Shown here: one piece after another, positions 1,421-49,416 of the stretch
Layout of the letters: each line of letters begins with the position of its first letter
Position numbering within the stretch: position 1 is the first letter of the stretch
Source of the DNA: an uncultured Candidatus Saccharibacteria bacterium
Lineage (GTDB): Bacteria; Patescibacteriota; Minisyncoccia; Phycocordibacterales; SBAW01
Assembly: GCA_964420015.1 (NCBI GenBank)
Contig: CAYQPO010000005.1
Location: 6,523 to 70,522 of the forward strand
Direction of reading: 5' to 3'
Length of the DNA stretch: 64,000 nt
The notes under the pieces: model-generated
What the model was told of the DNA's origin: nothing
The model's input: only the letters and a program-made list of their open reading frames with translations
The model's database searches: none
Position numbers and translations under genes: made by a program

Positions 1421-2911
1421 CTATTTTGCCAAACTGAGCACCTCCTCTATTGTGGTCAGCCCTTGGGCTGCCTTAAACAGAGCGTCTTCTATCAAATTGA
1501 GGCTCACTATCTCCCCCTCGGTCGTGTCCGTCCTACGGGCGAGGCCTTTTTCTTGCACCTCTTGCACCCCCAGCATGCCTTCGTAGCCCCCCGTGCACTC
1601 GCTGCAGGCTGCTGCGCGAGCAAACTGCACCTCTTTCCATGGCGTGTCTTTGGCGACGACCCCCTCTTCTTTAAGTGCGCTTAACACATGAGCAAAGTTT
1701 GCTCCGGCGGTCTCGAGCGCATCGCTCTCTTGGCGCGTGAGTTTGCGCTTGTCCAAAAACTTTTTACTGCACAATTTTTTTAGTACTGCCGAGTGCACAC
1801 GCAGCTCGGGCGCTTCGATCTCTGCGCCACCCTCGTTTGCAGCAAGTACCAAAATCCCGCGCGCTACAGCAAAGCGCGCAAGCGCGCTCATTTCGCTCCC
1901 TTGCAGTGGGTCGAGCATCACCACATCCGGGTCGCTCTTGAGCACCCCGCGGAGCAACGCCGCGGGGCTCAAGGCTCCACCCACTTCAACTTGGGCCACA
2001 CGCGGCAATGTTTGCGATACGCGCTCCTCTACCGAGGCGAGTGCCAACTCTGGCGTGTTGAGCAAGTCGAGTAGCGTGTAGAGGAGTGTTGTCTTGCCTG
2101 CCCCGAGGTTACTCGAGGGGCCTGTGCCCTCTACCAACAAAAGTCCGCGCCGACGATTTAAAAAGTGATGCACGCGCTCGAGCGCTTCGCCGTGCAAGCC
2201 TAAACTGCTGAGTGTCCAACCCGCTCTCTCGCGCTCGCGGATTATGTGGAGCACCATCTTTTCTCCCCCAACTGTAGAAAGAGACTGCACACTCACGCGC
2301 GCGTCTTCGCCATTCCCCAAATCGACTTTCAATCTGCTCTCTTTGGGTAGCGCCCCCGCTGAGATACCCGCAAGTGCTCGCAACTGCCCAAACAAGTTAC
2401 TCCCCGCCCCAGGCGGCAATGCAAAGGCGCTCCGCAGAATACCCCGGATCCTATAGCGCACCACCAGACTGCTCCCTAATTCCAGATGGATGTCGCTCGC
2501 ACCGCTCATAAAGGCATGGCGCAAGAGCACGTCGAGCAAATCGGGTGAGTTTGCAGCTTCGAGTTGTGCACCATACGCTTCGCGCAAATGTTTTTGATAA
2601 TGCAGCAGCGCCTTGACCATCGAGCCCCTCGTGGTCAGCCGCGGCACAAGGCGATAGCGACTTTCTAAAAACCCAAAGTGCTCCAGGTCGGCCAAATTGA
2701 GGAGCGCCACCTCGAGCGTGTGACCTTGCAGTGCAAAGCCTACAGCGTTGTGCTCGCGCGCCATGGGCTCGGGGATAACGAGCATCGCCTCTTTTGCAAT
2801 ATCTGCGGGCTCGAGAACTACAAACGGGACGCCGTTTGCGTGTGCAAACGCGTGGCGCTGCTCGTCGTCGCCCAACAACTCTCTACCCAACCAAGCAGGT
2901 GTATGCTCCAT
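1421..2911 (-). CDS. GspE/PilB-family type II secretion / type IV pilus assembly ATPase
   Basis: 496 aa; Walker A GPSSNLGAGKTTLLYTLL; GspE-type Asp box and His box region; C-terminal CSECTGGYEG zinc-finger-like motif; N-terminal GspII_E_N-like domain. Confidence 0.8.
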   Translation of the reverse strand: MEHTPAWLGRELLGDDEQRHAFAHANGVPFVVLEPADIAKEAMLVIPEPMAREHNAVGFALQGHTLEVALLNLADLEHFGFLESRYRLVPRLTTRGSMVKALLHYQKHLREAYGAQLEAANSPDLLDVLLRHAFMSGASDIHLELGSSLVVRYRIRGILRSAFALPPGAGSNLFGQLRALAGISAGALPKESRLKVDLGNGEDARVSVQSLSTVGGEKMVLHIIRERERAGWTLSSLGLHGEALERVHHFLNRRRGLLLVEGTGPSSNLGAGKTTLLYTLLDLLNTPELALASVEERVSQTLPRVAQVEVGGALSPAALLRGVLKSDPDVVMLDPLQGSEMSALARFAVARGILVLAANEGGAEIEAPELRVHSAVLKKLCSKKFLDKRKLTRQESDALETAGANFAHVLSALKEEGVVAKDTPWKEVQFARAAACSECTGGYEGMLGVQEVQEKGLARRTDTTEGEIVSLNLIEDALFKAAQGLTTIEEVLSLAK

Positions 2912-3517: not shown

Positions 3518-3625
3518 ATGATGAAACACGTTCACCCGTCTCTCGCTTATACCCCGATGGTCGCCGGCGCGCTGACGCAGCACGGCAACACCGCGGAGGG
3601 CCCCGGCGGCGGGTGGCTGAAGTAA
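3518..3625 (+). CDS. candidate small ORF (35 aa, MMKHVHPSLAYTPMVAGALTQHGNTAEGPGGGWLK)
   Basis: not in the ORF track (<60 aa); near-perfect SD AAAGGAGG 7 nt upstream of ATG; own promoter upstream and hairpin+T-tract terminator downstream. Confidence 0.3.
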   Translation: MMKHVHPSLAYTPMVAGALTQHGNTAEGPGGGWLK

Positions 3626-3679: not shown

Positions 3680-3722
3680 CCGTGGTGCCCAGCGATATGC
3701 GGGTGCCACGGTTTTTATTTTT
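3680..3722 (+). terminator. intrinsic terminator (11-bp stem with 2 GU pairs, then TTTTTATTTTTT)
   Basis: CCGTGGTGCCC-N10-GGGTGCCACGG + T-tract; oriented for the plus strand; overlaps the 3' end of the convergent regulator gene. Confidence 0.4.
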
Positions 3723-9665: not shown

Positions 9666-11234
9666 ATGTTCGTTTCATATATCAACTTTGTATGCAATCC
9701 CTTTATGTCACTTACTATAGTATTTCTGCTCTTAGCGGCAGCGGCCGCTGCGGGCATAGCGGTAGGCTTTTGGCTCCGGCTCTTGGTCCTGCGTGCGCGT
9801 AGAAACTCGCTCGAAATAGAGGTCCAAAAAATTCTCCTCAACGCACGCGAGGATGCTAAGCGCATTACCGAAGAGGCCGATGTAAAAGCTAAAGCAACAG
9901 CCACTGAGGCTGCCACTGTGCTCGCCGAAAAGGAGGACAAGATCGCCAAGCAGGAGGAGCGCATCTTTAAGCGCGAGGAAGCACTCGACAAAAAACAGAC
10001 CGAGCTCGACAAAGAGGTCGCCGAGGTCAAGACGAAGATCGAGGAGGTGCGCACGATTAAAGAGCGCGCTGAAGCGCTCATCGAGGAGCGCACGGGAGAG
10101 CTCGCCAAGGTGGCGGGCCTAAGCCGCGAGCAGGCCAAAGAGCAACTGCTCGCCGAGCTTGAGCGCGAGTCGGGAGACGATTTAATGATGCGGACCGCCA
10201 AGCTCGAGCGCGACGGCCTCGAGCGCCTCGAGCGCCGCGCGCGCGAGATTTTGACCACCGCGATCCACCGTTTGGGTAACTCGGTCGCCTCCGACACGAT
10301 GGCCACCGCGATCACCATCCCCAACGACGACTTGAAAGGCAAAATCATCGGCAAAGAGGGTCGCAATATCAAAGCCTTTGAGCGCGCCACCGGCGTTGAG
10401 GTAATCATCGACGACACTCCCGGCTCGATTGTGCTCTCCAGCTACGACCCGCTGCGCCGCGCGGTGGCGCGCGTGGCGCTCGAAAACCTCATCGTCGACG
10501 GCCGTATCCAACCTGCCAAAATTGAGGAGACGGTGGAGAAGGCTAAGCAAGAAGTCAACAAAATAATTAAGGAGAAGGCCGAGGCCGCGGCATTTGAGGT
10601 GGGCGTGCTCAACCTCGACCCGCGTTTGTTGATGATTTTAGGCCGACTCCACTTTCGCACCAGCTACGGTCAGTCGGTTTTGCAACACTCAGTTGAGATG
10701 GCACACATCGCCGGCATGATCGCCGAAGAGCTCGGCGCCAACCCGGCCGTGGCACGTGCTGGCGCACTTCTGCACGACATTGGCAAAGCCCTCGACCACG
10801 AGGTACAGGGCACGCACGTGGAGATCGGCCGGCGCATCTTGGCTAAGTTTGGCGTACAAGAGGAAGTGATCAAAGCGATGCAGGCCCACCACGAGGAGTA
10901 CCCGTACGAAACCCCCGAGAGCTACATCGTGCAGGTGGCCGACGCCATCTCCGGCGGGCGGCCTGGTGCACGCCGCGACTCAGTTGAGCAATACATCAAA
11001 CGCTTGGCTGACATTGAGCAGATCGCCAATAGTTTTGAGGGCGTAGAGAAGAGCTATGCGATTTCCGCAGGCCGCGAGGTGCGCGTGTTTGTAAAACCCG
11101 AGGTCACGAACGACTTTCAGGCGCGCGAACTGGCCCGCAACATCGCCTTGCGAATTGAACAAGAGCTCAAATACCCGGGCGAAATTAAGGTGATCGCCAT
11201 CCGCGAGACCCGCGCGATCGAGTTCGCTCGATAG
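9666..11234 (+). CDS. rny: ribonuclease Y
   Basis: N-terminal TM, coiled-coil, KH domain (IIGKEGRNIKAFE), HD domain (HSVEMAHIAGMIAEELG...LLHDIGK); true start may be the internal MSLTIVF. Confidence 0.9.
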   Translation: MFVSYINFVCNPFMSLTIVFLLLAAAAAAGIAVGFWLRLLVLRARRNSLEIEVQKILLNAREDAKRITEEADVKAKATATEAATVLAEKEDKIAKQEERIFKREEALDKKQTELDKEVAEVKTKIEEVRTIKERAEALIEERTGELAKVAGLSREQAKEQLLAELERESGDDLMMRTAKLERDGLERLERRAREILTTAIHRLGNSVASDTMATAITIPNDDLKGKIIGKEGRNIKAFERATGVEVIIDDTPGSIVLSSYDPLRRAVARVALENLIVDGRIQPAKIEETVEKAKQEVNKIIKEKAEAAAFEVGVLNLDPRLLMILGRLHFRTSYGQSVLQHSVEMAHIAGMIAEELGANPAVARAGALLHDIGKALDHEVQGTHVEIGRRILAKFGVQEEVIKAMQAHHEEYPYETPESYIVQVADAISGGRPGARRDSVEQYIKRLADIEQIANSFEGVEKSYAISAGREVRVFVKPEVTNDFQARELARNIALRIEQELKYPGEIKVIAIRETRAIEFAR

Positions 11235-11295
11235 CTTGCGAAAATTAGCGCCCTCGCCTATTGTGGGAGCGGTATTCCAATCAAAGGAGAGGCGG

Positions 11296-11922
11296 GTGGA
11301 AAAGAGACCTTTAAGAAAGACGGTCATGGCGGTTCGAGTACCACCTGGCCCAGTTGAAACTGAGACGCTTTTGTTGGAAATGGTCCAGAAAGCTGCAGAA
11401 ATCAGCATCGTGGGCGAACTCGAGCTCAAAGTTGCCTACGCATCAAACGTCGCCGAGGACAACGATCTTGGCGTGATGTTGGTCAGGGTCAAAGATTCGG
11501 CCTCGGCGGCAATGAAACAACAAAAGGGTGCGGACTGTGCCATGAATCTGAGCATGTGGAACCCGCCCTTGGCTGGGCTCAAGATGCGCTACGCTTCAGC
11601 CTGCATTGTGGACAGATTCGGGAACATATACATGGCGGGGTACCCCGATCCAGCTACGCTGCGGATAAAGGGTTGGCGTATCGCCATCGGTCGTCACATG
11701 CCCGCAGCAACTGCTCTGGGTATGGGTGGTTTGCATGGGCAACCACAAGTCCTGATCGAAGACGAATTGAAGGACTGCCCGGGAGACTACCGAGAAATGG
11801 AAATGATTGTCGCGGCAGCGCTGGCACTACGGATCTATGCAAACCCGGGCGAGATCTCCGATGGTGACCCGTGGAAAAGGCTCAGTCAGCCAATCAGGAA
11901 GTCTAAAAAGACTAAAAAATAA
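11296..11922 (+). CDS. hypothetical protein
   Basis: in-frame GTG with SD GGAGAGG 4 nt upstream, chosen over the track start at 11236; no family recognised. Confidence 0.4.
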   Translation: MEKRPLRKTVMAVRVPPGPVETETLLLEMVQKAAEISIVGELELKVAYASNVAEDNDLGVMLVRVKDSASAAMKQQKGADCAMNLSMWNPPLAGLKMRYASACIVDRFGNIYMAGYPDPATLRIKGWRIAIGRHMPAATALGMGGLHGQPQVLIEDELKDCPGDYREMEMIVAAALALRIYANPGEISDGDPWKRLSQPIRKSKKTKK

Positions 11923-11935
11923 ATTCGGGTTCGGG

Positions 11936-11960
11936 GCCCCGCTTCGGCGGGGCTATTTTT
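11936..11960 (+). terminator. intrinsic terminator
   Basis: GCCCCGC-TTCG-GCGGGGC + TATTTTT. Confidence 0.5.
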
Positions 11961-12042
11961 ATCTAAAAAGCCAGGCCTTGCAAGGGTTTTTTCGGGGAGT
12001 ATACTAGCGACACAGGGTTTTTAGTAGCTAATTGCCCCAAGT

Positions 12043-12315
12043 ATGAACAAGCAGGACATTGCAGAGAAGGTGCACGGCGTCCTTGGCACCACCAAGGCCG
12101 ACGCAGAGCGCGCGGTTGAGGCGATGATCGACTCGATCGTGGGCGAGCTCAAGAAAGGCGGCGAGGTTTCTGTCGCTGGCCTCGGCATCTTCAAAACCAA
12201 GATGCGCGCAGCGCGCCAAGCGCGCAACCCGCGCACCGGTGCAACCGTGCAGGTCCCCTCGATGCGCGTGCCGAAGTTTCAACCGGCCAAAGCATTGAAG
12301 GAAGCGGTTAAGTAA
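12043..12315 (+). CDS. hup: DNA-binding protein HU
   Basis: 90 aa; GLGIFKTKMRAARQARNPRTGATVQVP arm motif. Confidence 0.9.
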   Translation: MNKQDIAEKVHGVLGTTKADAERAVEAMIDSIVGELKKGGEVSVAGLGIFKTKMRAARQARNPRTGATVQVPSMRVPKFQPAKALKEAVK

Positions 12316-12411
12316 GCTTCACAAAAGTTATTTGCTCCGGAGAGATAAACACGACCCCAACTCCTCCGCAAACAACTTTTGTTTCGCCGTTCGAAAGGAT
12401 CCTCTCGAAAC

Positions 12412-12438
12412 GAAAAAATCCCCCGTGGGGGATTTTTT
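12412..12438. terminator. bidirectional intrinsic terminator
   Basis: AAAAAA-ATCCCCC-GTG-GGGGGAT-TTTTTT. Confidence 0.5.
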
Positions 12439-12560
12439 CGTTGTAGGGGGCCGAAGACTTGCATCTTGAGGGCAGTGAGTCTGCGGTCGAGCGCGACGGC
12501 GCGAGACTCAGCAAATTTCTAGCAGGAAATTTGCGGTGCCCGAAAGATATAAGTCTGAGG

Positions 12561-13322
12561 CTATTCAACTGCACTGAGTGGCACCCGAACCTCAAAACTC
12601 CCCACCGCATAGGCAGCCACTTGGTAAGGCGGTATCAAGACCACGAGTGTATCGCCATCCACCACAAAGGTGGAGTAGTTATCTTCAGTTGGCTTGAGCC
12701 CCTCACTAAAGAGGGCCTCTGAAACATCACTTATTTCGAGCCGTTGCTTGAGCTGTGCGGTTACGTCGGCCGTAACGATGGTGCTGAGTTTAGCAAGGTC
12801 GTTGCTCTTGATAATGTCGTAGATCGACACCGCCTTACCATTTTGGTCGAAGGTAAATGTCTTGAAGTAGATGTTGGGGTGCGCACCACCTGTGTCGGCA
12901 AAAATAGTGTAGGCGTACGAAACCGTGCCCGTTTGGGCCGATGAGTATGATTTATACGTTGCATCGAGCTCCAGCTTGTGCCCATCAGAGAGGCTTGGCA
13001 ACACCGTCGCGTCGAGGCCCGCAATGTTTTGTTTAAAGTCATCTACCTCGGCTTTGAGGGCTGTTTGGATATACTCCCGAGCTTTTTGGTCAGCAGTCGA
13101 ATTGGTAAGTGCCGTTTTGGCCGGGTAGAGGACACTCACCGTGTAGGTTGAACCGGACTCCGCATATTCTTTATTGCCGGTAGAAGTGGCCGAACCGCCC
13201 AACAGATCTTGTTCTTGAGTGGTTGTCGCTGTCGGTTGTGTTGGCCGCCCTGCCCAAAACTCATACCCGAACCCAAGCACCACCAATAGGATAACCGCGT
13301 AGAATAGTTTTTTATAATCCAT
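12561..13322 (-). CDS. TM-anchored hypothetical secreted-domain protein (possibly a DUF3298/DUF4163 RsiV/PdaC-like fold)
   Basis: start taken at MDYKKLFYAVILLVV (TM anchor); family assignment is weak and from memory only. Confidence 0.4.
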   Translation of the reverse strand: MDYKKLFYAVILLVVLGFGYEFWAGRPTQPTATTTQEQDLLGGSATSTGNKEYAESGSTYTVSVLYPAKTALTNSTADQKAREYIQTALKAEVDDFKQNIAGLDATVLPSLSDGHKLELDATYKSYSSAQTGTVSYAYTIFADTGGAHPNIYFKTFTFDQNGKAVSIYDIIKSNDLAKLSTIVTADVTAQLKQRLEISDVSEALFSEGLKPTEDNYSTFVVDGDTLVVLIPPYQVAAYAVGSFEVRVPLSAVE

Positions 13323-13369
13323 CTCTGTACTATACAGGACGCACGTTTTGAGACACAATTACCAACATC

Positions 13370-13440
13370 GCGGGCGTGGTCTACCGGTATGACACCTGCC
13401 TTCCAAGCAGGTAGAGCGAGTTCGATTCTCGCCGCCCGCA
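13370..13440 (+). tRNA. tRNA-Gly (anticodon UCC)
   Basis: cloverleaf folded by hand: acceptor GCGGGCG/CGCCCGC, anticodon arm CCTGC-CTTCCAA-GCAGG, T arm GTTCGATTC, discriminator A; CCA not encoded. Confidence 0.85.
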
Positions 13441-13441
13441 C

Positions 13442-14575
13442 ATGAATATCGTCGATCAAGTAATATCCTTCCTTGCTCATGCGCTGGTGGGCTTCATGAT
13501 GCTCGTCTCGCTCCTCTTGACCACAACGAGCACACAAGCCCCCACAGTCCGAACTCCAGCCGCGGCGCCCGCCCAACAAGCAGCCAGCTTCCCCACCGCA
13601 ACCTCAACTACAAACTCAGCGAAAGCAAAACCTGCCCCAACGAATGGTCTGGTTGAGCCGACACAGACGGCGACCCGAGGACCTGAGGCGGGGCAGGTTT
13701 TGCCCCCAACGCCCCTCAAGTCGCAAGAGCAAATCAACACCGAGACCCGCGCCGCGCTGGTCAACATTTTGTGCACCACCAAAGGCGGGGGCTATCTTGC
13801 GCCCATCTCGGGCTCGGGAGTTATTGTCGACAGCCGTGGGGTCATCCTCACTAACGCACATGTGGCGCAGTTCTTTTTGTTGCGCAATTACTACCAGCCC
13901 GACAACGTGCAGTGTGTGGTGCGCATGGGCTCGCCTGCCGAACCCTACTACACGGCTGAACTCCTCTACCTGCCGCCGAAGTGGGTAACCGACAACGCAT
14001 CGCAAATTGTCGCCGCGGAAGCCACCGGCACCGGCGAAAATGACTACGCATTTTTGCGCATCACCGGTGCGGTGGGTACGCGCACGCTGCCGAGCACTTT
14101 CCCGGCAGTGGTGATGGCGAGCAGCCCGCCGAGCTTGGGTGATGCGGCGCTTTTGGCCGCCTACCCTGCCGGCTATCTCGGGGGCGAAAACATTACCAAG
14201 AGTTTGTATCAAAGCTCGGCGGTGACCTATGTCTCTCAGCTCCTTTCGTTCGACGCCAGCAAAAATATAGACATGTTTTCTATAGGCGGCACCGTGGTCT
14301 CTCAAGCGGGCTCTAGTGGCGGGGCGGTGGTCTCGCTTTATAATGGTGCGCTCAAAGGGATCATCGCGGTTGAGACCATCTCCAACTCAACCGGCACGCG
14401 CGACCTGCAGGCCTTGAGCCTCGACTCGATCAACCGCGCGCTGCTTGGGCTTGGTCTCGGTGGCATCGCAGGAGTTTTGCAAGGCGACCTGGCAACCAAA
14501 GCAGCCGACTTTGCCCAAAACACCGCGCCCGGCGAAACCGCGCAGCTCACCGCCGCGCTCGATAAGGGGTATTAA
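13442..14575 (+). CDS. secreted trypsin-like (S1/DegP-type) serine protease
   Basis: N-terminal TM; GSGVIVDSRGVILTNAHV (His) and GSSGGAVVS (Ser) trypsin-fold motifs; no PDZ domain seen; start may be the internal MMLVSLL. Confidence 0.7.
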   Translation: MNIVDQVISFLAHALVGFMMLVSLLLTTTSTQAPTVRTPAAAPAQQAASFPTATSTTNSAKAKPAPTNGLVEPTQTATRGPEAGQVLPPTPLKSQEQINTETRAALVNILCTTKGGGYLAPISGSGVIVDSRGVILTNAHVAQFFLLRNYYQPDNVQCVVRMGSPAEPYYTAELLYLPPKWVTDNASQIVAAEATGTGENDYAFLRITGAVGTRTLPSTFPAVVMASSPPSLGDAALLAAYPAGYLGGENITKSLYQSSAVTYVSQLLSFDASKNIDMFSIGGTVVSQAGSSGGAVVSLYNGALKGIIAVETISNSTGTRDLQALSLDSINRALLGLGLGGIAGVLQGDLATKAADFAQNTAPGETAQLTAALDKGY

Positions 14576-14610
14576 AAAAACCGCCGCTTGGTAGCGACGG
14601 TTTGAGTTTT
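14574..14610. terminator. possible bidirectional terminator between the convergent protease and rSAM genes
   Basis: AAAAAAA-CCGCCGCT-TGGT-AGCGACGG (1 mismatch) - TTTGAGTTTT. Confidence 0.35.
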
Positions 14611-15497
14611 CAGATCGAGTGGCCAATCTCGGTGAGGATGCGAGCCAGAAATTTATGGGCCGGCTCTGTGGTGTCCCATATGGGAGCACCTTGTGATGTA
14701 CCGAGGACCTCCCTTCCGCGAGAGCAGGTGCCATCCGGAGAGAGCCTCACCAGATAGCCCTCTTGTTCGAGCGCATAGACTGCCACTTCGCGATAGAAGT
14801 TTTTTGTCTTGCGAGTCTTGAACACATCACTCAGAGCCACATGCACACCATACTTCTCTCCTTCGGCGATGAGTCGGAGGAGTGTGGCCTTGATCCATGC
14901 GTCGCTCATTGAATTTTTTTGGGTGCGAAAGTCGGTGTAGAGTCCGATCTCCCATTCCTCAACTGCGAGCTGCGCAAGGAGTTTAGGCATTCCCATAAGT
15001 TGTCTCTCTCGGTTAGGAAAGAGCACCGACGCCACGGTGAGTTCGCTCCCGAACCATCGCCGTGCCTCGCGGATACCCGCGAGTGTCTGTTCGTAACATC
15101 CTGGTACGCCGCGAAGCTTTTCATGCACGGCAGGGATATTGCTGTCGAGCGACACCGCGAGGATGTCGACCAAACCCGAAAGTTCTTGCGCCCGTTCGGC
15201 TAATAGTACTCCGTTAGTCACTAGTCGGGTCCCCAAATCTAGCGTGTCGGCCAAACCCAGCACCGACTTAGTAAGTTTCCACGTCTCGGGTAAGAGCGGT
15301 TCGTACCCTTGGACACTAAAGGTGCTTACCGGTAGGTGCGTCGCCGCTTCTTTTATGAAGCGGAGATAGTGGTCGTCTGTGAGCTTGCTCACTGTGGCCT
15401 CTCCGCGCTGTGCTATCGCGCAGAACGGACACTTGAGATTGCACCCGTTAGGCGCAGGTAACACAACCGTGAGTAACAAATCGTCGATACGGCTCAT
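14610..15497 (-). CDS. radical SAM enzyme (CxxxCxxC; no SPASM domain seen)
   Basis: NGCNLKCPFCAI near the N-terminus; 295 aa; subfamily not assignable by eye. Confidence 0.8.
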   Translation of the reverse strand: MSRIDDLLLTVVLPAPNGCNLKCPFCAIAQRGEATVSKLTDDHYLRFIKEAATHLPVSTFSVQGYEPLLPETWKLTKSVLGLADTLDLGTRLVTNGVLLAERAQELSGLVDILAVSLDSNIPAVHEKLRGVPGCYEQTLAGIREARRWFGSELTVASVLFPNRERQLMGMPKLLAQLAVEEWEIGLYTDFRTQKNSMSDAWIKATLLRLIAEGEKYGVHVALSDVFKTRKTKNFYREVAVYALEQEGYLVRLSPDGTCSRGREVLGTSQGAPIWDTTEPAHKFLARILTEIGHSI

Positions 15498-15505
15498 GAT
15501 CCTCT

Positions 15506-15535
15506 CCAGAAAAAATGGCGGAGGGATGCTCCGCC
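15506..15535 (-). terminator. intrinsic terminator/attenuator between the sORF and the rSAM gene
   Basis: minus strand GGCGGAG-CATCC-CTCCGCC + ATTTTTTCTGG; the T-tract overlaps the rSAM RBS GGAGAGG. Confidence 0.4.
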
Positions 15536-15552
15536 ATAAGTTAGAAGGTGGA

Positions 15553-15675
15553 CTATTTCGGCTTCCGATATGTGGGCCTTGTGCGGCGAATCAGCCGACT
15601 GCTGATACCCGCGCCCGCCCTTGCGGCGACGACGGCCTTACGTTCGGATCCGACCCTCACTGCGACAGCAGCCAT
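15553..15675 (-). CDS. candidate 40-aa highly basic sORF (MAAVAVRVGSERKAVVAARAGAGISSRLIRRTRPTYRKPK)
   Basis: not in the track; SD AGGAGG 5 nt upstream of ATG; directly upstream of the rSAM gene on the same strand. Confidence 0.3.
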   Translation of the reverse strand: MAAVAVRVGSERKAVVAARAGAGISSRLIRRTRPTYRKPK

Positions 15676-15845
15676 GGGTGCCTCCTAACCTATCCAGCGG
15701 GACCATCCCGTCGGTTCCGCTACCATTAAACGCTCATGGAAACCCTCCCGCTATAATTTGGGCCAATTGGAAGAAAAACCTTATTTTTCAATATATTTTG
15801 CTATAAAGTTTGACGAATATACTCGTCATATAGTAGGATTTCTGT

Positions 15846-16658
15846 ATGCAAGTCCAAAAGGCTGAACGCCGCCTGCTGGGGCTTAATAAGCGCGAAAGTG
15901 AACTTCTCAGCGCTCTTGAGCGCCTCAAAACTGCTTCGATGCAAGAGCTTGCAGATGAGCTGAAACTCCCTCGAACCAGCCTCTACTGGCCCCTGGATCA
16001 GCTTTATAAACGCAACCTAGTCGTTTACGAAAAAGTGGGTAAACGCAAGCGGTGGTACTCGCGCATGGGCGAGCTCCCGTTGCGCAAAAAGCTCGGCTCA
16101 CTCGAAACTGTGGCTGGCGACGTGCGCGTGGTAGAAGGAGTCGAGCAAATCAAAGAGCTCTACCGTCTTTCATTAGACCTCCACCCCACTGAACGTGTCT
16201 TAATTTTGGAAGGCACCGTGGCCGCAACCTCAATAGCCCGCAAAGGCGGCATAGACTTTCTCACCGAATATCACGAGCGCGCATATAAAAACAAAATCAT
16301 TGTCGAATCGATTTTTGGAGAGAAACTCTACGAAAATGTTTTGCGGATGATAGTTGACCCAAAGATAGTGCGGAGCCTCTCGCGCCTTAATACATGGATC
16401 GCCCATATCGTGCCCGAGGAATGGATGAATGTGGACGCGGCAGTGGTCCTTTTCAGAGAAACTGCGATCATCGCCGACTGGACAAAAACGCATGCGGTGC
16501 TCGTAAACAACCCTGAGATTGTTCGTTTGTTGCGGAACTTCTGCGAGGTCTTTCAACTCACCGGTCGCAAAGTAGATATCGTCTCCGAGATCCGCTCAGC
16601 GGTCGCAAAGAGCAGCTCAAACGCGCCAGCGGGCGAAGATGCCCAACCTAGAGAATAA
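15846..16658 (+). CDS. TrmB-like winged-helix transcriptional regulator (paralogue I)
   Basis: LNKRESELLSALERL.TASMQELADELKLPRTSLYWPLDQLYKRNLV wHTH; about 270 aa. Confidence 0.55.
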   Translation: MQVQKAERRLLGLNKRESELLSALERLKTASMQELADELKLPRTSLYWPLDQLYKRNLVVYEKVGKRKRWYSRMGELPLRKKLGSLETVAGDVRVVEGVEQIKELYRLSLDLHPTERVLILEGTVAATSIARKGGIDFLTEYHERAYKNKIIVESIFGEKLYENVLRMIVDPKIVRSLSRLNTWIAHIVPEEWMNVDAAVVLFRETAIIADWTKTHAVLVNNPEIVRLLRNFCEVFQLTGRKVDIVSEIRSAVAKSSSNAPAGEDAQPRE

Positions 16659-17466
16659 CCAAACTCGTCTCGGGCAACATACCGGGGTAGTCTATAAGCC
16701 TAGCGCTTGCAGGCAGATCTTCTTTAAAAATATAGTGGACCTTAAATTTGCTTGGGTCAGTCATAAATTCTTTGGTCCACGCTTGTGAGACCGCATAATT
16801 GCCGAGCATGTCGTAGACCACTCTCATTACTCGGTAATCTGGCTTAGACCACAGTGCATGAGTCGTTGGCTCCTCAACTAAAACGATCTTTTCGACCCCG
16901 ATGCATCGATTCAAAAACTCCGCAAGGGTTATACCAAGGTGATGAAACGACCAGCGACCAATTAATACCGTGGGTTTGGTGGTGTTGACAACCTCTTTGT
17001 AGTTTACTTCTGCATTTGGGTCGACCACTACCAGCTTCTTGTCTTTCATAAAAGAAGTCTCGCTACGAAAGTCGCCTATATCAATCCCGATCCATTCGAT
17101 TTTTATTTCAGGATAGAGCTCGGATAGTTTCTGCGCCACAGCGCGCTCAAAAACACTTTCATCTCCACACCCAAGACTCACCACCGCGACCTCTTGAGTA
17201 TTGAGAGTCCCGATCTCCTCACAAGCTTTTGCCACCCAATCGTCTTGGGCAAGTTTGTTTTGCTCAAAAATTGCATTCCTCAGTTGAGAAAACTCTGAGT
17301 CGTCGAGTTTAAACTTCTTTAGGGCTTCGACGCCATACTTTACAATTTCGTCGTTACTTTTTGCTTCAAAAGCCGCAGAGTCGACAAGATCCATCAAGCG
17401 CTGCAGCAGAATTACGCGGATATCGTCTCTTTTAACCCGCCAATATGTAAACGGATCGGTCTCCAT
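16648..17466 (-). CDS. putative class I SAM-dependent methyltransferase-like protein
   Basis: VVSLGCGDE resembles Rossmann motif I; otherwise unassigned. Confidence 0.4.
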   Translation of the reverse strand: METDPFTYWRVKRDDIRVILLQRLMDLVDSAAFEAKSNDEIVKYGVEALKKFKLDDSEFSQLRNAIFEQNKLAQDDWVAKACEEIGTLNTQEVAVVSLGCGDESVFERAVAQKLSELYPEIKIEWIGIDIGDFRSETSFMKDKKLVVVDPNAEVNYKEVVNTTKPTVLIGRWSFHHLGITLAEFLNRCIGVEKIVLVEEPTTHALWSKPDYRVMRVVYDMLGNYAVSQAWTKEFMTDPSKFKVHYIFKEDLPASARLIDYPGMLPETSLVIL

Positions 17467-17470
17467 TTAT

Positions 17471-18433
17471 TTACACTTTCCACCGCGCGAAGATGCCGCA
17501 AGGCAGTAATCTGCCTTGCCCTGAGCTTGTCGAAGGGCTCTCTTCAATAGCCAAGTCGCCATATTCGATCGAGCCCCCAAAATTTTTGGTAAGAAACTCA
17601 AGGTTGTAGGCGAACGCCAATGGCGAGTAACCGGCTGCGTAGCCGTTGATCAGCACAAACAGCGGCTGCTCGCTCAAAAGCTCGGGCAAAAGCTGCATCA
17701 ACTCCAAAAAGTCTTCCTCAATCTTCCACAACTCCCCTGCCGGGCCGTGGCCAAACGCGGGCGGGTCCATTACTACCGCGTCGTACTTCGTACCGCGTTT
17801 AATTTCGCGCTTTACAAACTTGAGCGCATCTTCGGTGATCCAGCGGATTGGTGCATCCTTCAAACCACTAAGTTCGGCATTTTGCCGCGCCCATGCGACC
17901 GCCGTCTTGCTCGCGTCGACATGCGTCACTTTTGCTCCCGTCTCACCCGTAGGGCTACGACCGAGGGCTTTAGCGGCCGCGAGCGTCGCCCCACCGGTGT
18001 AGCCAAATAAATTCAAGACACTCGGAGCAGATCCTTGTTGAGAAAAATGGTCTGGTTGAGGCGACAAGGACGCCGACCCGAGGAGCTTTTTCGACGCAAG
18101 GATCTGCGAAGCCCACTCCCAGTTCGAAAGTTGTTCGGGGAAGAGCCCCGTGTGTTTAAAACTCGTCGGCTTGATCAAAAACTGCAGACCGCCAAAACTA
18201 ATCCGCCACTCTTTTGGTAAATTCTGTTCTATCCACTCTCCTTCCCTCCCCTGTCGCTCAAAACGCCCTTGTGCTTTTTGCCACTCGCCTGCCCCAAGTC
18301 GCTTCTCCCACAGCGCTTGCGGGTCAGGCCTAGCCAAAAGCACATTGCCAAAGCGCTCGAGCTTTTCCTCCCGGCCAGAGTCGATGAGCTCATAGTCTGA
18401 GCTTGGTTTAGTGACTAATGTTTTTCTTTCCAT
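17471..18433 (-). CDS. class I SAM-dependent RNA methyltransferase (RlmI/YccW-like)
   Basis: LNLFGYTGGATLAA (motif I), VVMDPPAFG (DPPxF motif IV). Confidence 0.7.
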   Translation of the reverse strand: MERKTLVTKPSSDYELIDSGREEKLERFGNVLLARPDPQALWEKRLGAGEWQKAQGRFERQGREGEWIEQNLPKEWRISFGGLQFLIKPTSFKHTGLFPEQLSNWEWASQILASKKLLGSASLSPQPDHFSQQGSAPSVLNLFGYTGGATLAAAKALGRSPTGETGAKVTHVDASKTAVAWARQNAELSGLKDAPIRWITEDALKFVKREIKRGTKYDAVVMDPPAFGHGPAGELWKIEEDFLELMQLLPELLSEQPLFVLINGYAAGYSPLAFAYNLEFLTKNFGGSIEYGDLAIEESPSTSSGQGRLLPCGIFARWKV

Positions 18434-18445
18434 ACTCTAAACTTG

Positions 18446-18516
18446 TCGGGGCGCCGAGAGTCGAACTCGGGCTAAATCCTCCCAAAGGACTCGTGCGACC
18501 GTTACACTACGCCCCG
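18446..18516 (-). tRNA. tRNA-Pro (anticodon UGG)
   Basis: hand fold: acceptor CGGGGCG/CGCCCCG with a C1-G72 pair and discriminator A (characteristic of bacterial tRNA-Pro), anticodon loop TTTGGGA, T arm CCGAG-TTCGACT-CTCGG. Confidence 0.8.
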
Positions 18517-18546
18517 TGCCTGCACTGCGTAGCCTTGGCGAAACAG

Positions 18547-18567
18547 TGTCCTTTAGAATGTCCTTTA
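18547..18567 (+). repeat. two direct copies of TGTCCTTTA, 12-nt spacing
   Basis: GTGTCCTTTAGAATGTCCTTTAC read in sequence; the same 9-mer recurs three times at 20881-20920. Confidence 0.5.
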
Positions 18568-18577
18568 CAAAACTTCG

Positions 18578-18946
18578 CTAAACAATGACATTCTCCAGTA
18601 CTTCTACTTTAGCCCGCCTGGTCGAAAAGTCCAAATAAACACAAGCAACATCGAGCTGCCACGGCGTTTCATCAGAAATTTTACGGTCCATAAGGTAGGT
18701 TTGGATTGCCCTATGGAGTCGCTTGATTTTGGCTGGATGTACGTTCTCTTCGGGCCTATAAGTTTCGCGTGAAACCGACTTAACTTCAACAAAATATAGC
18801 TTTTTCGCCTTCTCAGCTATGATGTCTATCTCACCCCACTTCCGTAAGTAATTACGTTCTACTATCCGAAATCCCTTTGATTCTAAGTATTTGCAAGCAA
18901 CCCCCTCTCCTATGTCTCCCAAAGCGCGTTTAGGAGTTTTGGCCAT
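18578..18946 (-). CDS. yraN: YraN-family (UPF0102) endonuclease-like protein
   Basis: 122 aa; GEGVACKYLESKGFRIVERNY...GEIDIIA...YFVEVK. Confidence 0.8.
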   Translation of the reverse strand: MAKTPKRALGDIGEGVACKYLESKGFRIVERNYLRKWGEIDIIAEKAKKLYFVEVKSVSRETYRPEENVHPAKIKRLHRAIQTYLMDRKISDETPWQLDVACVYLDFSTRRAKVEVLENVIV

Positions 18947-19178: not shown

Positions 19179-19250
19179 TGCGCTCGCCAGGACTCGAACC
19201 TGGAATAGCTGGTTCGAAGCCAGCCGTGATATCCATTTCACCACGAGCGC
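19179..19250 (-). tRNA. tRNA-Arg (anticodon UCG)
   Basis: hand fold: acceptor GCGCTCG/CGAGCGC, D arm GTGA/TCAC, anticodon arm GCTGG-CTTCGAA-CCAGC, T arm GGTTCGAGTCC, discriminator A. Confidence 0.8.
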
Positions 19251-19328: not shown

Positions 19329-19399
19329 GCGGATATGGTTTAGTGGTAGAACGCGTCCTTGCCAAGGACGAGATCGGGGTTCGATTCCCCGTATCCGCA
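19329..19399 (+). tRNA. tRNA-Gly (anticodon GCC)
   Basis: hand fold: acceptor GCGGATA/TATCCGC, anticodon arm CGTCC-TTGCCAA-GGACG, T arm CGGGG-TTCGATT-CCCCG. Confidence 0.85.
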
Positions 19400-21255: not shown

Positions 21256-22071
21256 CTAGGGGTTTATAGTTTTCAAAATCTCCTCGTGTTCGGGAGCGCT
21301 GAGTGCCCAGATATACTCAAAGAGGATTTCAAACGTCTGTCGTATAGCCATATTTTCTATAAGCGTAGTGATTATAGGGCCATCATAGGAGGTGACAGCC
21401 ACTTTGTTGGCATAGATAAACACCTGGGCGGGCACCGACATACGCTCGGCAGGCACCATACGCCGCTCGACCAGGTTTTTTTGATCGGGCTCAATAACCC
21501 AGTAAGGTGCCCCCTTAACCAAAGGGGTGATTGCCCTCGTAGTAATGCCCAGTTTTACCCGCTCTGCCATCTGCCTTGCGATGAGCTCTTTGAGCCCCGG
21601 TTCGTCTCGGTCTTTTACTGAGCGGACGAGCTTTAGGGGTTGTCGCTCGTTGAGCTGGTCTTCGTAGAGCTCGGCTATACCCGACATCCCTTCTAAAATA
21701 CGCACCCCGGGCTGCCCTGCAACAGTATTAAAGTCCGAAATAAGTTTAGTTAAGGCGCTATCCAAGGCATTTTTGGCATTTTTGGCCTCTTCAATTCGCT
21801 TGTCGGCCAACTCTTTGAGTTTGAGCGGGTGAGCCCCTACAAATAAGGCTATCTCGCCGGGTTTGTCGCTTTTAGTGACCAACTCAAGGGCCTCGAGCTC
21901 GCCTAAGAGCTTGTAGCTGAGCGTCCTGGGCACCCCTGCCAAGAAGCTCAACCGGGTGGCAGTAAGTGGACCATGCTGTATTAAGGCCTCATACAGTGCT
22001 GATTGGCCTGGACTGAGCCCAGACTGAGTGAGCGCTTGGCGAACCACCTCGCTGGAGACCTTGTACTCCAT
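21256..22071 (-). CDS. TrmB-like winged-helix transcriptional regulator (paralogue B)
   Basis: LSPGQSALYEALIQHGPLTATRLSFLAGVPRTLSYKLLGELEALELV wHTH; 271 aa. Confidence 0.55.
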   Translation of the reverse strand: MEYKVSSEVVRQALTQSGLSPGQSALYEALIQHGPLTATRLSFLAGVPRTLSYKLLGELEALELVTKSDKPGEIALFVGAHPLKLKELADKRIEEAKNAKNALDSALTKLISDFNTVAGQPGVRILEGMSGIAELYEDQLNERQPLKLVRSVKDRDEPGLKELIARQMAERVKLGITTRAITPLVKGAPYWVIEPDQKNLVERRMVPAERMSVPAQVFIYANKVAVTSYDGPIITTLIENMAIRQTFEILFEYIWALSAPEHEEILKTINP

Positions 22072-25648: not shown

Positions 25649-25690
25649 ACCCCGTCCTGAGCAAGTCGAAGGGCGGGCTTTTGTTATTGT
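25649..25690. terminator. possible bidirectional terminator between SBP1 and regulator C
   Basis: CCCGTCC-N13-GGGCGGG (one GU) flanked by AAAA/TTTTGTTATTGTTT. Confidence 0.3.
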
Positions 25691-26451
25691 TTGAGCGTCG
25701 AGTCGACGTAGCGAAAAAGTTCTTTCATCATCTTGGCGATTTCTGCGTCCTTGACGAGGATTGCCAAATGCCCGCTCTCTCGGTACGACGCCATAAAAAC
25801 TTTGTCGTCATAAATCACCACCTCCATGTCGAACTGATAGCCAGGCGGCAGTAACTTCATGTCGCGCATCTGCTGCGGGTCGAGCGACTTAAATTTGCGG
25901 AGCGTCGGTGTGTCGGTCGCCACCGTGTAGGCATGGATGCCCGCGCTCGTTCGTTTGTTGATGTATGCGTTGATCCAGTCGTAGCCCATCGCCTCGAGCG
26001 TCACATCGCCGCCCAAAAACCCGTACATAACCTTGCCCTTGTTATGCTCGACAGTATCTTCATACGCTTGCTTGATTCCTTCAATGCCTTCGAAGTACTG
26101 TATCCGGGTTGTTTGATTGCTCCGCGTACGCAAAAGTTTAAGCTCGGGTAAAAGTTGATTAAGTTGCTTCTTGCTCTCCTCAAGCGCTGCCCGACGGCGT
26201 TCGAGATACCCGGGGAGCATTTCGGGGGCGATCGCTTGGAAGCGGGTTGCACCTTGCTTTTTAGTCTGAGAGACTAGCCCCAGTGCAGCAAGTTCGTGGA
26301 CAATATCGTAAGTAGTAGTGCGGTTAAGCTTTGCCTCCTTAGCTATCGCCGCGACCAGCATCGGACCGCTTTCGAGTAGCACGCTAAATACGGCGTTTTG
26401 TTTTTCGCTCAAATTGAGCACGTCGAGAGCTTTCTTAAGTGCGGGGATCAT
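25684..26451 (-). CDS. TrmB-family regulator (paralogue C)
   Basis: start taken at MIPALKK (the track starts at an upstream TTG); LNLSEKQNAVFSVLLESGPMLVAAIAKEAKLNRTTTYDIVHELAALGLV. Confidence 0.65.
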   Translation of the reverse strand: MIPALKKALDVLNLSEKQNAVFSVLLESGPMLVAAIAKEAKLNRTTTYDIVHELAALGLVSQTKKQGATRFQAIAPEMLPGYLERRRAALEESKKQLNQLLPELKLLRTRSNQTTRIQYFEGIEGIKQAYEDTVEHNKGKVMYGFLGGDVTLEAMGYDWINAYINKRTSAGIHAYTVATDTPTLRKFKSLDPQQMRDMKLLPPGYQFDMEVVIYDDKVFMASYRESGHLAILVKDAEIAKMMKELFRYVDSTLKQ

Positions 26452-26574
26452 AGCAAAATAGTTGTTGTGGAAAAGTACCGACAGTTTAGTGCAGAAATTG
26501 TTGACTGTCAAACAGGCTATGGTATTTTAGTGTTGCAGTTTTTAGTCAGGTTCGACTAACTAGGCTTATTTTAT

Positions 26575-37707: not shown

Positions 37708-38475
37708 TTACTCACTCGAAACACTCCACAGCGCTTTAAAGAACTCGCGGTACCCATCCGCGATTTCTTTGTTGGTCAGCGCAAAGCACAGCGGCTGCTC
37801 ACCAAAGACGTTGTAGACGATCGAGTCGTGCCAAATGCCAATGTCGACTGCGCCAGTGCCGAGGCCAGGAAAAGTTTTATAACTCCACAGCGCGCGTTGC
37901 TTACTCATTTTCTCGAACGTCTTGCGCCGCGCCTCGGTTGAGATCACGCGGATCTCGATCTTGCGCTCAAGGCGAATACGCTCAAACTCGTCGGCCTCGT
38001 GCCCAAGCACTGTCATGTACTCTTCGCCCAACCCAGTGACCACATCGATGCGCGAACCTTGGGGCACGCGCCGAAGCATCTCGAGCTCGTGGCCAACGAG
38101 TGCCGCCGCGCCCTGATAAATTTCAAAACTCTGCGGGCTCACCCCCACAAATCTATTTTGCAACTCACGCACAATTGCCTGGGCAGCAAGCTTCTTCTCA
38201 TCAACCAGCGAGACAATCCGCTGGGGCGCATTGACTGAGAACTTTTTACGCCCGCCTTGTATTACATGCTGAGTAAGTCCGAGCCCCTCAAGCCGAGCGA
38301 GCGCGGCATACACAAACTGCCCATGGAGCCCCGTTGCCCTAATAAGGTTGGTGGTGCCGGTATTGGGCCGGGGGAGCAAGGCCAAGTAGACTCGAGCCTC
38401 TTTATCGCCCAACCCTAACTCGCTCAGCTTTTTGAGCAGGTCTTGATTTTCAGTTTTATCAATAGTTTTTGACAT
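37708..38475 (-). CDS. TrmB-family regulator (paralogue F)
   Basis: LGLGDKEARVYLALLPRPNTGTTNLIRATGLHGQFVYAALARLEGLGL. Confidence 0.65.
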   Translation of the reverse strand: MSKTIDKTENQDLLKKLSELGLGDKEARVYLALLPRPNTGTTNLIRATGLHGQFVYAALARLEGLGLTQHVIQGGRKKFSVNAPQRIVSLVDEKKLAAQAIVRELQNRFVGVSPQSFEIYQGAAALVGHELEMLRRVPQGSRIDVVTGLGEEYMTVLGHEADEFERIRLERKIEIRVISTEARRKTFEKMSKQRALWSYKTFPGLGTGAVDIGIWHDSIVYNVFGEQPLCFALTNKEIADGYREFFKALWSVSSE

Positions 38476-47592: not shown

Positions 47593-48646
47593 TCTGCTGC
47601 TGCCTAAAAAAGAGAGTGTTTCTCCTGACACCGCAAGCCGAGTAAACGCAGCCGCGCTCTTAGCACAAGAGCAGCAGGCGGAGCTGCAAAAGCCCGAACC
47701 ATCAAAACCTGTGGCCATTGTGCAACCAAAAGCGCCGGAGAGCACGGTCAAGCCGCTTGAGACTTTTCGCAGCGACATCGAACGCGCGGTCCAGGGTGGC
47801 GCCTCGATCGTGACTATTGCTGCAGCCGAGGCCGACCGCCGCGCACAAGGGGGCAGAGCGCCTGAGGCAAAAGCTGCCGATCCTCACTTGTGGCGCCATA
47901 TCGGTTACCTAGCCGCAGGATTGGTGCTTTTGTGCGCGGCGGGCGGAGTGCTCCTGTATTTGTTGAGCAAAACGGCGCCGCTACCGGTTGCGCAGACACC
48001 GCAAGCGCCATTCATTTCGGTTGATGAAACCAAGGTTATCAGCGAGCCGGCAAACCCCACACGCGACCAACTCATGACCGACTTGACTGCTGCTAAACAA
48101 AAAGTTGCCCTCTCCGTAGGACTCGTCGAGTGGCTCTACCCCGCGCAGCAAAATGCCTCGACCAGTGCGCAGGAGGGCATCCCTGCGGCGCAGTTTTTGC
48201 AAACCCTCGCGCCAACCATCCCCGGAGAACTCTTGCGCACGCTTGAGCCGACCTACCTGGTGGGCGTGCACTCGTACGACCAAAACCAGCCTTTTTTGCT
48301 CTTGACGGTCGACAGCTACGAGGTGGCCTACGCAGCAATGCTCCAGTGGGAGCGCACCATGGAGTCTGACCTGTTGCCTTTCTTTAACCGCGACCTCTCT
48401 CCGCAATTGCCGTCGCAGCAAAGCCCCGACCTTGCCACCACGAGCCAAGCGTTTGTCCCCAGCAATTTTGTCGACCAGGTGGTAGAAAATCGCGACACGC
48501 GCGTGCTCTTTTCTGACCATGGCGACCTCAAACTTTTGTGGACCATGCTGGGGCGCAACACTATCCTCATCACCACCAACAAATACACCTTGCGCGAGGT
48601 GATCTCACGCATGAACCAAGCACCCACGATTCCTGCAACACCCTAA
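47546..48646 (+). CDS. hypothetical TM-anchored protein
   Basis: track ORF overlaps the pnp 3' end by 47 nt, so the true start is probably an internal alternative codon; one TM (YLAAGLVLLCAAGGVLLYLL). Confidence 0.35.
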   Translation: MPPQEPNTPKPLDPSSLLLPKKESVSPDTASRVNAAALLAQEQQAELQKPEPSKPVAIVQPKAPESTVKPLETFRSDIERAVQGGASIVTIAAAEADRRAQGGRAPEAKAADPHLWRHIGYLAAGLVLLCAAGGVLLYLLSKTAPLPVAQTPQAPFISVDETKVISEPANPTRDQLMTDLTAAKQKVALSVGLVEWLYPAQQNASTSAQEGIPAAQFLQTLAPTIPGELLRTLEPTYLVGVHSYDQNQPFLLLTVDSYEVAYAAMLQWERTMESDLLPFFNRDLSPQLPSQQSPDLATTSQAFVPSNFVDQVVENRDTRVLFSDHGDLKLLWTMLGRNTILITTNKYTLREVISRMNQAPTIPATP

Positions 48647-49398: not shown

Positions 49399-49416
49399 GG
49401 AGAAAAGAGTAGTCTG

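Follow-up and report, generated by a model that had tools for sequence, protein, structure and literature searches.

A conserved family of very basic micro-peptides encoded directly upstream of an isolated radical SAM enzyme in Patescibacteria: a candidate minimal peptide-plus-maturase cassette with an attenuating hairpin

INTRODUCTION

Among the described systems in which a radical S-adenosylmethionine (rSAM) enzyme matures a ribosomally synthesized and posttranslationally modified peptide (RiPP), those closest in layout to the locus reported here are the epipeptides (YydF with the epimerase YydG/EpeE) and streptide (SuiA with SuiB). The locus lies in a stretch of 64,000 nucleotides (the window) of contig CAYQPO010000005.1 from an uncultured Candidatus Saccharibacteria bacterium, where a 40-codon small open reading frame (sORF) immediately precedes a gene for an rSAM protein. 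As in the epipeptide and streptide cassettes, a small precursor-like gene is found directly upstream of the rSAM gene and in the same orientation, a hairpin separates the peptide and enzyme genes, and the peptide is cationic with Val/Ile/Ala-rich segments. The general hallmark of an rSAM RiPP cassette, an adjacent, co-oriented short precursor gene conserved in relatives, is found here. Enzymes of the epipeptide and streptide type carry SPASM or twitch auxiliary clusters and, in most cases, a RiPP recognition element (RRE). The window enzyme, in contrast, has no SPASM, twitch, or RRE, its NCBIfam scores are far below cutoff, and, unlike in those cassettes, no protease or exporter is present at the locus. 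A SPASM or twitch domain is found in most, though not all, peptide-modifying rSAM enzymes.

A preliminary description of the window had suggested three-residue-cyclophane chemistry on a YRK-like motif. The maturases of such peptides (triceptides) are rSAM/SPASM enzymes; the likeness lies in a conserved aromatic-basic pair of residues ([AT]-Y-[RK]), and the differences in an rSAM without SPASM (five Cys, three of them in CX3CX2C) and in the absence of the Tyr from one peptide subgroup. The aromatic-basic motif does belong to the most conserved part of the peptide, while the cyclophane assignment is not borne out, the enzyme having neither SPASM, nor twitch, nor RRE.

The compact rSAM enzymes acting on nucleotides and sugars (viperin/pVip, BlsE, DesII, and MoaA) resemble the window enzyme in size and single-domain architecture and are its best matches (BlsE 7vob at 1.6e-11, viperins with TM scores of about 0.62 to 0.67); the PADLOC pVip model also hits the rSAM core weakly (2.9e-10). 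They differ in that the scores fall below the family cutoffs and in that a C-terminal RLSPDGxCSRGxE..PxWD region is present only in the family of the window enzyme. We know of no compact nucleotide or sugar rSAM with a conserved upstream micro-peptide. Two further comparisons are with the trp and ilv attenuators, which share with the locus a short ORF with a strong Shine-Dalgarno (SD) sequence, a terminator hairpin ahead of the gene, and a Val/Ala-rich leader, and with the borosins (OphMA-type fused core and split variants). The attenuators differ from the window family, in which the amino acid motif is conserved, the sORF is duplicated in tandem, and no antiterminator alternative was found. 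The borosins offer an analogy only, that of a separate peptide in one subclade and an extra tail in its sister; the borosin enzyme is a methyltransferase rather than an rSAM, no homology between tail and peptide was detected, and modification of the tail is unsupported.

Patescibacteria have very small genomes and are generally credited with little specialized peptide chemistry. Literature searches on rSAM RiPPs in Patescibacteria and the candidate phyla radiation turned up no published description of the rSAM/sORF family.

RESULTS

A 40-codon sORF with a perfect SD sequence precedes the rSAM gene

Read along the minus strand, the locus consists of AGGAGG (15686-15681), 5 nt, the sORF, TAG, UCCACCUUCUAACUU, a hairpin, six U, CU, GGAGAGG, AUC, the rSAM ATG at 15497, and, past the end of that gene at 14610, its own terminator (14603-14578). 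The individual features are the following.

15681..15686, minus strand: SD sequence AGGAGG of the sORF, 5 nt ahead of its ATG
15553..15675, minus strand: sORF of 40 aa, MAAVAVRVGSERKAVVAARAGAGISSRLIRRTRPTYRKPK, read from the sequence; member of a conserved, unannotated peptide family
15543..15552, minus strand: pyrimidine-rich stretch UCCACCUUCU immediately 3' of the sORF stop, predicted to form an outer helix with the rSAM SD around the hairpin
15510..15537, minus strand: terminator-like hairpin AUGGCGGAG-CAUCC-CUCCGCCAU with a U6 tract, between the sORF and the rSAM SD, from pattern scan and folding
15501..15507, minus strand: SD sequence GGAGAGG of the rSAM gene, read from the sequence
14610..15497, minus strand: rSAM enzyme of 295 aa, compact single domain, CNLKCPFC; Pfam PF04055 at 2.3e-15
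14571..14603, minus strand: intrinsic-terminator-like hairpin with T-run closing the sORF-rSAM unit, from pattern scan; 11 pairs, then TTTTAATACC

The sORF extends from the ATG at 15675 to the stop TAG at 15555-15553 of the minus strand, and its start is unambiguous because the ATG and the in-frame stop upstream of it have only two codons between them. The combination AGGAGG-N4-9-ATG occurs only four times in the window, both strands counted. The sORF stretch has 63% G+C, and the encoded peptide, with 11 K+R against one D+E (net charge about +10), has a computed pI of 12.0. It matched no model in Pfam, NCBIfam, or PADLOC.

Both the sORF with its AGGAGG-5-ATG and the 295-aa CNLKCPFC protein are present as the preliminary description had them. 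Its pI of well above 12 was right as to the strong basicity and slightly too high as a value. The GC hairpin with a T-tract, reported 18 nt after the sORF, does exist, but its stem begins 15 nt and its GC core 17 nt past the stop, and the T-run does not overlap the rSAM ribosome binding site, as had been stated, but stops 2 nt short of the SD.

The sORF belongs to a conserved peptide family missed by gene callers

Genomes and metagenomes supplied about 120 further loci that encode members of the same rSAM family (L numbers below). A profile built from 12 seed peptides, including that of the window, was searched against 24,624 six-frame stop-to-stop segments taken from the entire window and all the loci. 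Hits below 1e-3 were confined to positions at most 712 nt upstream of an rSAM gene and on its strand, and the next best segment anywhere had an E value of 0.4. Six of the hits (L052, L001, both copies of L136, and both of L137) were not seeds and had E values of 1.6e-6 to 3.9e-4; the window sORF, itself a seed, scored 4.2e-11 and is the only copy of the family in the window. Among 5.8 billion proteins the profile retrieved three unnamed entries, so nearly all members of the family are missed by gene callers.

The family comprises very basic peptides of 25 to 50 residues encoded upstream of one rSAM clade, sometimes in two copies. They share an N-terminal hydrophobic stretch, M-[AG]-x-[VI]-[VA]-[AIV], a variable middle, and the C-terminal motif [LF]-[LI]-R-R-x-R-x-[AT]-Y-[KR]; in the core group, R-x-[AT]-Y is found in 15/15 sequences and is followed by K or R in 12 of the 15. 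The products at other loci, all encoded upstream of the rSAM gene on the same strand, include the following.

L132: MGVVVISVPHARSRLLRRKRGAYRTRRTGASWSP and MVAVAVVVIATKAPLLRRTREAYKRRVLS
L133: MGALVASLTMRKSLARRARPAYKRSNLCPQPVLV and MPAACACLTKRRPLLRRSRPTYRAN
L136: MGALVAMVTMRRALARRNRPAYLGT and MVAAVSCLSMRRPLRRRLRPAYRPL
L137: MAAIVVVAAGTKRLLRRTRATYRCPARS and VVAVVVVARGSRKLLRRARPAYRAR
L135: MAAIVVVAKGVDLLSHERPAYLQ...
L008: MAVVIAGLARGKRRLRRRARRAYKAR
L001: MPAVAAKPTRKCRLKRRTRRTYRPAVVRK
L004: ...TLKRRDRPAYQNTKK

More divergent forms are encoded at L006, L056, L071, L134, and L052, the motif Tyr being replaced with F in L006 and L056. A third variant (L013, L129, and L050; MGVIASVPDKA...) retains the N-terminal motif and has a different C terminus. 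Tandem sORF pairs occur at four loci (L132, L133, L136, and L137), and the two types, a and b, are conserved between L133 and L136; several precursor genes are typical of RiPP loci. At L135 (2916-3092) and in the protein P0057 the sORF (MAAIVVVAKGVDLLSHERP[AT]YLQLEE...) is not closed by a stop ahead of the rSAM gene and reads on through the rSAM start in another frame, extending over more than 50 codons; the two sequences show conservation in their first 24 residues and none in the part overlapping the rSAM gene. The hydrophobic N-terminal motif is visible twice in the window peptide, as it is in L071 and L134, which hints that it may be a repeatable unit. At L124 (about 2640-2900, plus strand) there is a longer upstream ORF with three hydrophobic-motif repeats (VAFAAPN, VAVVFANAG, and MSVLFAKAG).

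A mere 40 codons in a stretch of 63% G+C, matching nothing in Pfam, NCBIfam, or PADLOC and belonging to a family that gene callers nearly never call (three members among 5.8 billion proteins), could be a functionless chance ORF in GC-rich intergenic DNA. What speaks against this is that frame, SD, position, strand, and amino acid motif are shared by at least 12 distinct loci despite a divergence that defeats alignment of their DNA, and that a sharp E-value gap separates the family from the other six-frame segments. GGAG-type SD sequences also precede the homologous sORFs at other loci, the closest sORF pairs differ by indels in multiples of three, and their substitutions are enriched at third codon positions (e.g., 8/13 for L071 versus L052). 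As far as sequence comparison goes, the profile search refutes the chance origin for practical purposes, and we regard it as extremely improbable. It is the conservation in relatives, not the window taken alone, that places the window sORF beyond chance. That the sORF represents a real, conserved family of micro-protein genes, in an operon-like layout and with a conserved hairpin, is nearly certain.

The rSAM enzyme belongs to a small, isolated family

Only the triad C19-x3-C23-x2-C26 of the five cysteines of the window rSAM is invariant across the family, so that SPASM and twitch clusters are both absent. The AlphaFold2 model (pLDDT 93.4) consists of one compact domain with no N-terminal extension. 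The Pfam match is limited to the generic Radical_SAM domain. The best NCBIfam match is TIGR03961 (PTO1314) with 62.2 bits versus a cutoff of 306, followed by MoaA (45 versus 325), viperin_w_prok (37.5 versus 180), and NrdG2 (23.6 versus 131), and the SPASM maturase models score 30 to 50 bits versus cutoffs of 300 to 650. The enzyme thus stays below the curated NCBIfam cutoffs for MoaA, viperin, NrdG/PflA activases, PqqE, NirJ/AhbD, BlsE, PTO1314, and Rv1681, and since all the scores are far below cutoff, it is not a MoaA, QueE, viperin, or activase. Foldseek against the PDB recovered, with TM scores of about 0.6, the core common to BlsE, SuiB, DesII, SkfB, viperins, and MoaA; SuiB, SkfB, and EpeE, the peptide-linked enzymes among the matches, align in that common core only (TM scores of about 0.5 to 0.68), and such matches assign no function.

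About 55 members of the rSAM family were found among the 5.8 billion proteins, after which the E value jumps from 3e-29 to 1e-4. Family members share a specific C-terminal region, RLSPDGxCSRGxE..PxWD..FLxRI, and split into a Patescibacterial clade, 40 to 62% identical to the window enzyme, and a proteobacterial clade, 30 to 39% identical to it. In the latter (L014-L049 and L059-L123), a conserved protein of about 435 aa, in which no Pfam domain was found, is encoded on the same strand 70 to 400 nt upstream of the rSAM gene, and Geminicoccaceae genomes have up to three copies of the rSAM with this partner. A mobile or phage origin was rejected, as plasmids, phages, and viral contigs yielded no member of the family. 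The peptide family and the rSAM clade are both without a name in Pfam, NCBIfam, PADLOC, and the protein-collection sources.

The preliminary description had named two outcomes that would count against it, an rSAM of a housekeeping family with no conserved peptide partner and an sORF frame not conserved in relatives. Neither was found, since homologues of the sORF keep the reading frame beside the same rSAM and the Pfam and NCBIfam classification places the enzyme in no housekeeping family. The search for SPASM or an RRE that it had called for found neither.

A terminator-like hairpin separates the sORF from the rSAM gene

The stem and loop of the window hairpin (15537..15515) comprise nine pairs (six G-C), and the T-run after them, at 15515-15510, counts six in all. 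The spacer between the sORF and the rSAM gene folds with -20.6 kcal/mol (z = -3.85), and none of 200 shuffled sequences was as stable. At five loci, i.e., the window, L132, L133, L136, and L137, the interval from the last sORF to the rSAM SD contains a GC-rich hairpin, so the attenuator hairpin of the preliminary description recurs at the same position in four others; the stem of L136 (GGCGGAG/CTCCGCC) is identical to that of the window. A U-rich tract comes after the hairpin at four of the five loci, and four of the five hairpins fold better than shuffled sequences (z = -2.6 to -3.85). An outer helix onto the rSAM SD is predicted in three loci (the window, L133, and L137), and the pairing stretch begins 0 to 10 nt past the sORF stop. 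In the terminator at the end of the rSAM gene, the stem itself finishes in TTT.

At other loci a leader of a second type, which spans about 125 to 250 nt (L001: some 600 nt) and includes a conserved hairpin, separates sORF and rSAM gene; its positions are as follows.

L134: 2772-3003
L071: 1539-1763
L052: 2776-3003
L008: 3822-4054
L013: 2756-2991
L129: 1196-1442
L050: 2835-3009
L004: 3878-4003
L001: around 3493

The core of this leader RNA reads UAUCAAG-stem-loop-CUUGUAGAGA, then GUUCUUUG, with compensatory changes at 10 of 19 predicted pairs; CAAAGG..CGGGGUU..UACCCUGUCAAUAAAA is common to six leader loci, and in most loci of this type a long hairpin abuts the rSAM SD. The leader RNA of the relatives has no match in Rfam and, judged by its covariation and conservation, may be an undescribed cis-regulatory RNA. 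Its TATCAAG..CTTGTAGAGA hairpin is absent from the window leader, and the sole pattern match in the window is the rSAM terminator. A known RNA family was likewise rejected, both for 14400-16000 and for the relatives' leaders: only tRNAs reached the Rfam gathering score, and the hits by E value did not rise above chance.

These leaders bear on the possibility that the sORF encodes a regulatory leader peptide, with the peptide itself functionless and its translation controlling the terminator or the SD-sequestering helix in cis. The mechanism could be attenuation, with the position of the ribosome or its stalling in the Val/Ala-rich or the RRxRP[AT]Y segment as the signal, or plain translational coupling. 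Such a role fits the order of sORF and terminator-like hairpin directly ahead of the rSAM SD in five loci, the predicted pairing of the stretch after the stop with that SD in the window, L133, and L137, and the co-occurrence of sORF and structured leader RNA, loci without the sORF having short, plain leaders; it would also account for the many rSAM-family members without a peptide. The Val/Ala/Ile-rich N termini are presumably reminiscent of ilv leader peptides. However, loci that diverge in nucleotide sequence still encode LLRRxRx[AT]Y[RK], a conservation beyond that of any run of regulatory codons; tandem sORF pairs at four loci would not be expected; the conserved Tyr lies anywhere from 3 to 12 residues ahead of the stop, a spread ill-suited to a fixed arrest site; and in at least six loci other structured RNA, about 200 nt of it, keeps the sORF apart from the rSAM gene. 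Nor did the minimum free energy and centroid folds of 15485-15730 (246 nt; a thermodynamic prediction only) contain a competing antiterminator: they retained the terminator hairpin and left its 5' arm unpaired elsewhere, and a classical antiterminator structure was rejected for this leader. We consider a purely regulatory leader peptide rather unlikely.

Presence of the sORF is complementary to a C-terminal tail of the enzyme

Complete short-tailed rSAM enzymes of the group with 47 to 54% identity have an upstream same-strand sORF in 11/11 distinct loci (the window, L001, L004, L008, L052, and L132-L137), and L071, where the rSAM gene is cut by the contig end, also carries one. In the sister subclade, the enzymes of which have a basic C-terminal extension of 28 to 38 aa, the sORF accompanies the tail in only two of nine loci, L006 and L056 (11/11 versus 2/9, Fisher p = 4.6e-4 with phylogeny ignored). 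For this extension a helix is predicted with confidence (P0020, residues 303-316).

L058, from a close relative, is syntenic with 9666-18946 of the window, with identities of 94% for HU, 91% for RNase Y, 67% for the TrmB-like regulator, 61% for a methyltransferase, and 65% for YraN. Its rSAM is long tailed, 43.5% identical to that of the window, and has no sORF, i.e., one cassette has taken the place of another at a conserved site. Such turnover is known from bacteriocin and RiPP loci.

The complementarity of sORF and tail raises the possibility that the peptide is an accessory micro-protein acting in trans, either as an rSAM subunit that replaces the basic tail helix or as an Arg-rich, antiterminator-like binder of the leader hairpin. 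The helical prediction for the tail, the exchange at L058 of sORF and short-tailed rSAM for a long-tailed rSAM alone beside a regulator 67% identical, and the position of the Arg-rich motif next to conserved RNA hairpins are all consistent with this. On the other hand, sORF profiles built from the whole peptide or from the motif only fail to detect the rSAM tails, the best hits (E values of about 0.2 to 0.3) being unrelated ORFs, and homology of the two was rejected as not detected; the sORF has a Pro in the middle of its motif, unlike the helical tail; tail and sORF occur together in L006 and L056; the complementarity may stem from only two or three evolutionary events; and the sORF is upstream of the enzyme, while a simple C-terminal fission would leave it downstream. 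An accessory role is an unlikely explanation, if a slightly better one than the regulatory leader peptide.

Less probable still, and in our judgment a long shot, is that peptide and tail are two forms of one element in a split-versus-fused, borosin-like self-modification by an rSAM. The long-tailed enzyme would then act on, or be controlled by, its own basic aromatic helix (..ARxFASWHAxR), and the short-tailed subclade would have the equivalent as one or two micro-peptides (..LLRRxRPAYKR). Were this so, it would be the rSAM analogue of the borosin arrangement, in minimal-genome bacteria of the candidate phyla radiation. Equally unconventional would be an Arg-rich peptide that binds the leader hairpin as a miniature antiterminator.

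A divergent TrmB-like regulator is the only recurrent neighbor

The promoter region of the sORF-rSAM unit is shared with a divergently transcribed regulator gene.

15846..16658, plus strand: TrmB-like winged-helix regulator, 270 aa, divergent from the rSAM unit; Pfam PF01978, 27.5 bits versus a cutoff of 25.6
15811..15828, no strand: palindrome TGACGA-N6-TCGTCA, 18-35 nt upstream of the TrmB-like ATG; overlaps a plus-strand promoter-like site at 15810..15839

A divergent TrmB-like gene of about 270 aa is present at most Patescibacterial loci and is the sole recurrent neighbor of the rSAM gene there. Searched with a profile of this regulator family, the PDB yielded TrmBL2 structures (1.1e-9, positions 10-134). 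No C-terminal sugar-binding domain like that of TrmB proper was found: there is no Pfam hit past residue 76, and the match to PDB profiles stops at 134-143. Homology of this partner to the 435-aa partner of the proteobacterial clade was rejected (hhalign probability 0.1%). The palindrome, as ATATGACG..CGTCAA, is also present in L058, L132, L135, and L137, and because it is conserved in these loci, the regulators of which are 52 to 68% identical to that of the window, it is probably the operator of the TrmB-like protein, which has the appearance of a DNA-binding protein of the TrmB/TrmBL2 type.

The window codes for at least five TrmB-like regulators of about 255 to 275 aa (21256-22071, 25684-26511, 37708-38475, and 48643-49458, all on the minus strand, and 15846-16658 on the plus strand), which therefore represent a common transcription factor family of the lineage that acts locally; the family is expanded in the genome of the window. 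Four tRNA genes flank the region (13370-13440, plus; 18446-18516, minus; 19179-19250, minus; and 19329-19399, plus). A second sORF with a perfect AGGAGG, unrelated to the rSAM-linked family, is located at 3518-3625 of the plus strand (product MMKHVHPSLAYTPMVAGALTQHGNTAEGPGGGWLK), and downstream of it, at about 3683-3715, is a terminator-like GC hairpin with a T-run.

DISCUSSION

The reading that we favor, tentatively and with slightly less than even confidence, is that the sORF and the rSAM gene form a minimal RiPP-like peptide-plus-maturase cassette with an attenuating hairpin. The sORF would be translated into a small cationic peptide, and it would share one transcription unit with the rSAM gene under the control of the divergent TrmB-like regulator, bound to the palindrome in the shared promoter region. 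The rSAM enzyme would modify the peptide, which offers a Val/Ala/Ile-rich N-terminal segment and the C-terminal LLRRxRx[AT]Y[RK] motif as a putative substrate. The GC hairpin with its U-tract could serve as a leaky terminator; we propose that peptide mRNA would therefore be made in excess of enzyme mRNA. The pyrimidine stretch 3' of the sORF stop is predicted to pair with the rSAM SD, and a ribosome finishing the sORF would free that SD, so that enzyme synthesis would be coupled to peptide synthesis. Such translational coupling seems reasonable because the terminating ribosome would cover the SD-pairing stretch.

In favor of a cassette are the strict adjacency of the two genes in a fixed position and on one strand, the tandem duplication with its a and b types, the conserved motif, the turnover of the cassette at the L058 site, and the orphan status of the enzyme. 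We also count for it the specificity of the family profile, the coding signature of the sORF, the hairpin shared by five loci, and the constancy of the TrmB-like partner amid variable surroundings.

Several findings weigh against this reading. Pfam shows no SPASM (PF13186) domain in the enzyme, and neither Pfam nor NCBIfam gives a PqqD/RRE hit; its compact single-domain size is that of small-molecule enzymes of the viperin, BlsE, and MoaA type. No protease, transporter, exporter, or immunity gene is conserved near the rSAM gene, the neighbors varying from locus to locus, and no further biosynthetic gene is conserved across the loci compared. In the peptide itself, the motif Tyr gives way to Q or E in the L071/L134/L052 subgroup. 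The distribution of the sORF is a further difficulty: it is absent from seven of the nine long-tailed loci, L058 among them, L017 and L018 (short tailed, Saccharibacteria) have none, and neither an SD filter nor clustering of all gap peptides revealed an equivalent in the proteobacterial clade, where the apparent clusters proved to be the rSAM's own N terminus or the end of the upstream gene. Since the sister subclade mostly and the proteobacterial clade wholly do without it, partnership with the peptide is not obligatory in the rSAM family.

Whatever the peptide does, the locus is a conserved three-part module made up of a regulator, one or two unannotated micro-peptides, and an rSAM of an isolated family that has neither SPASM nor RRE. 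If the peptide is the substrate, the module would represent a new, unusually minimal class of rSAM peptide modification, in which the peptide is recognized without the usual domains. If it is not, the locus would be a clean case of a radical enzyme under the control of a conserved micro-protein or leader peptide. In both cases it adds to the biology of these bacteria a micro-protein family missed by gene callers and a directly testable pair of small genes.

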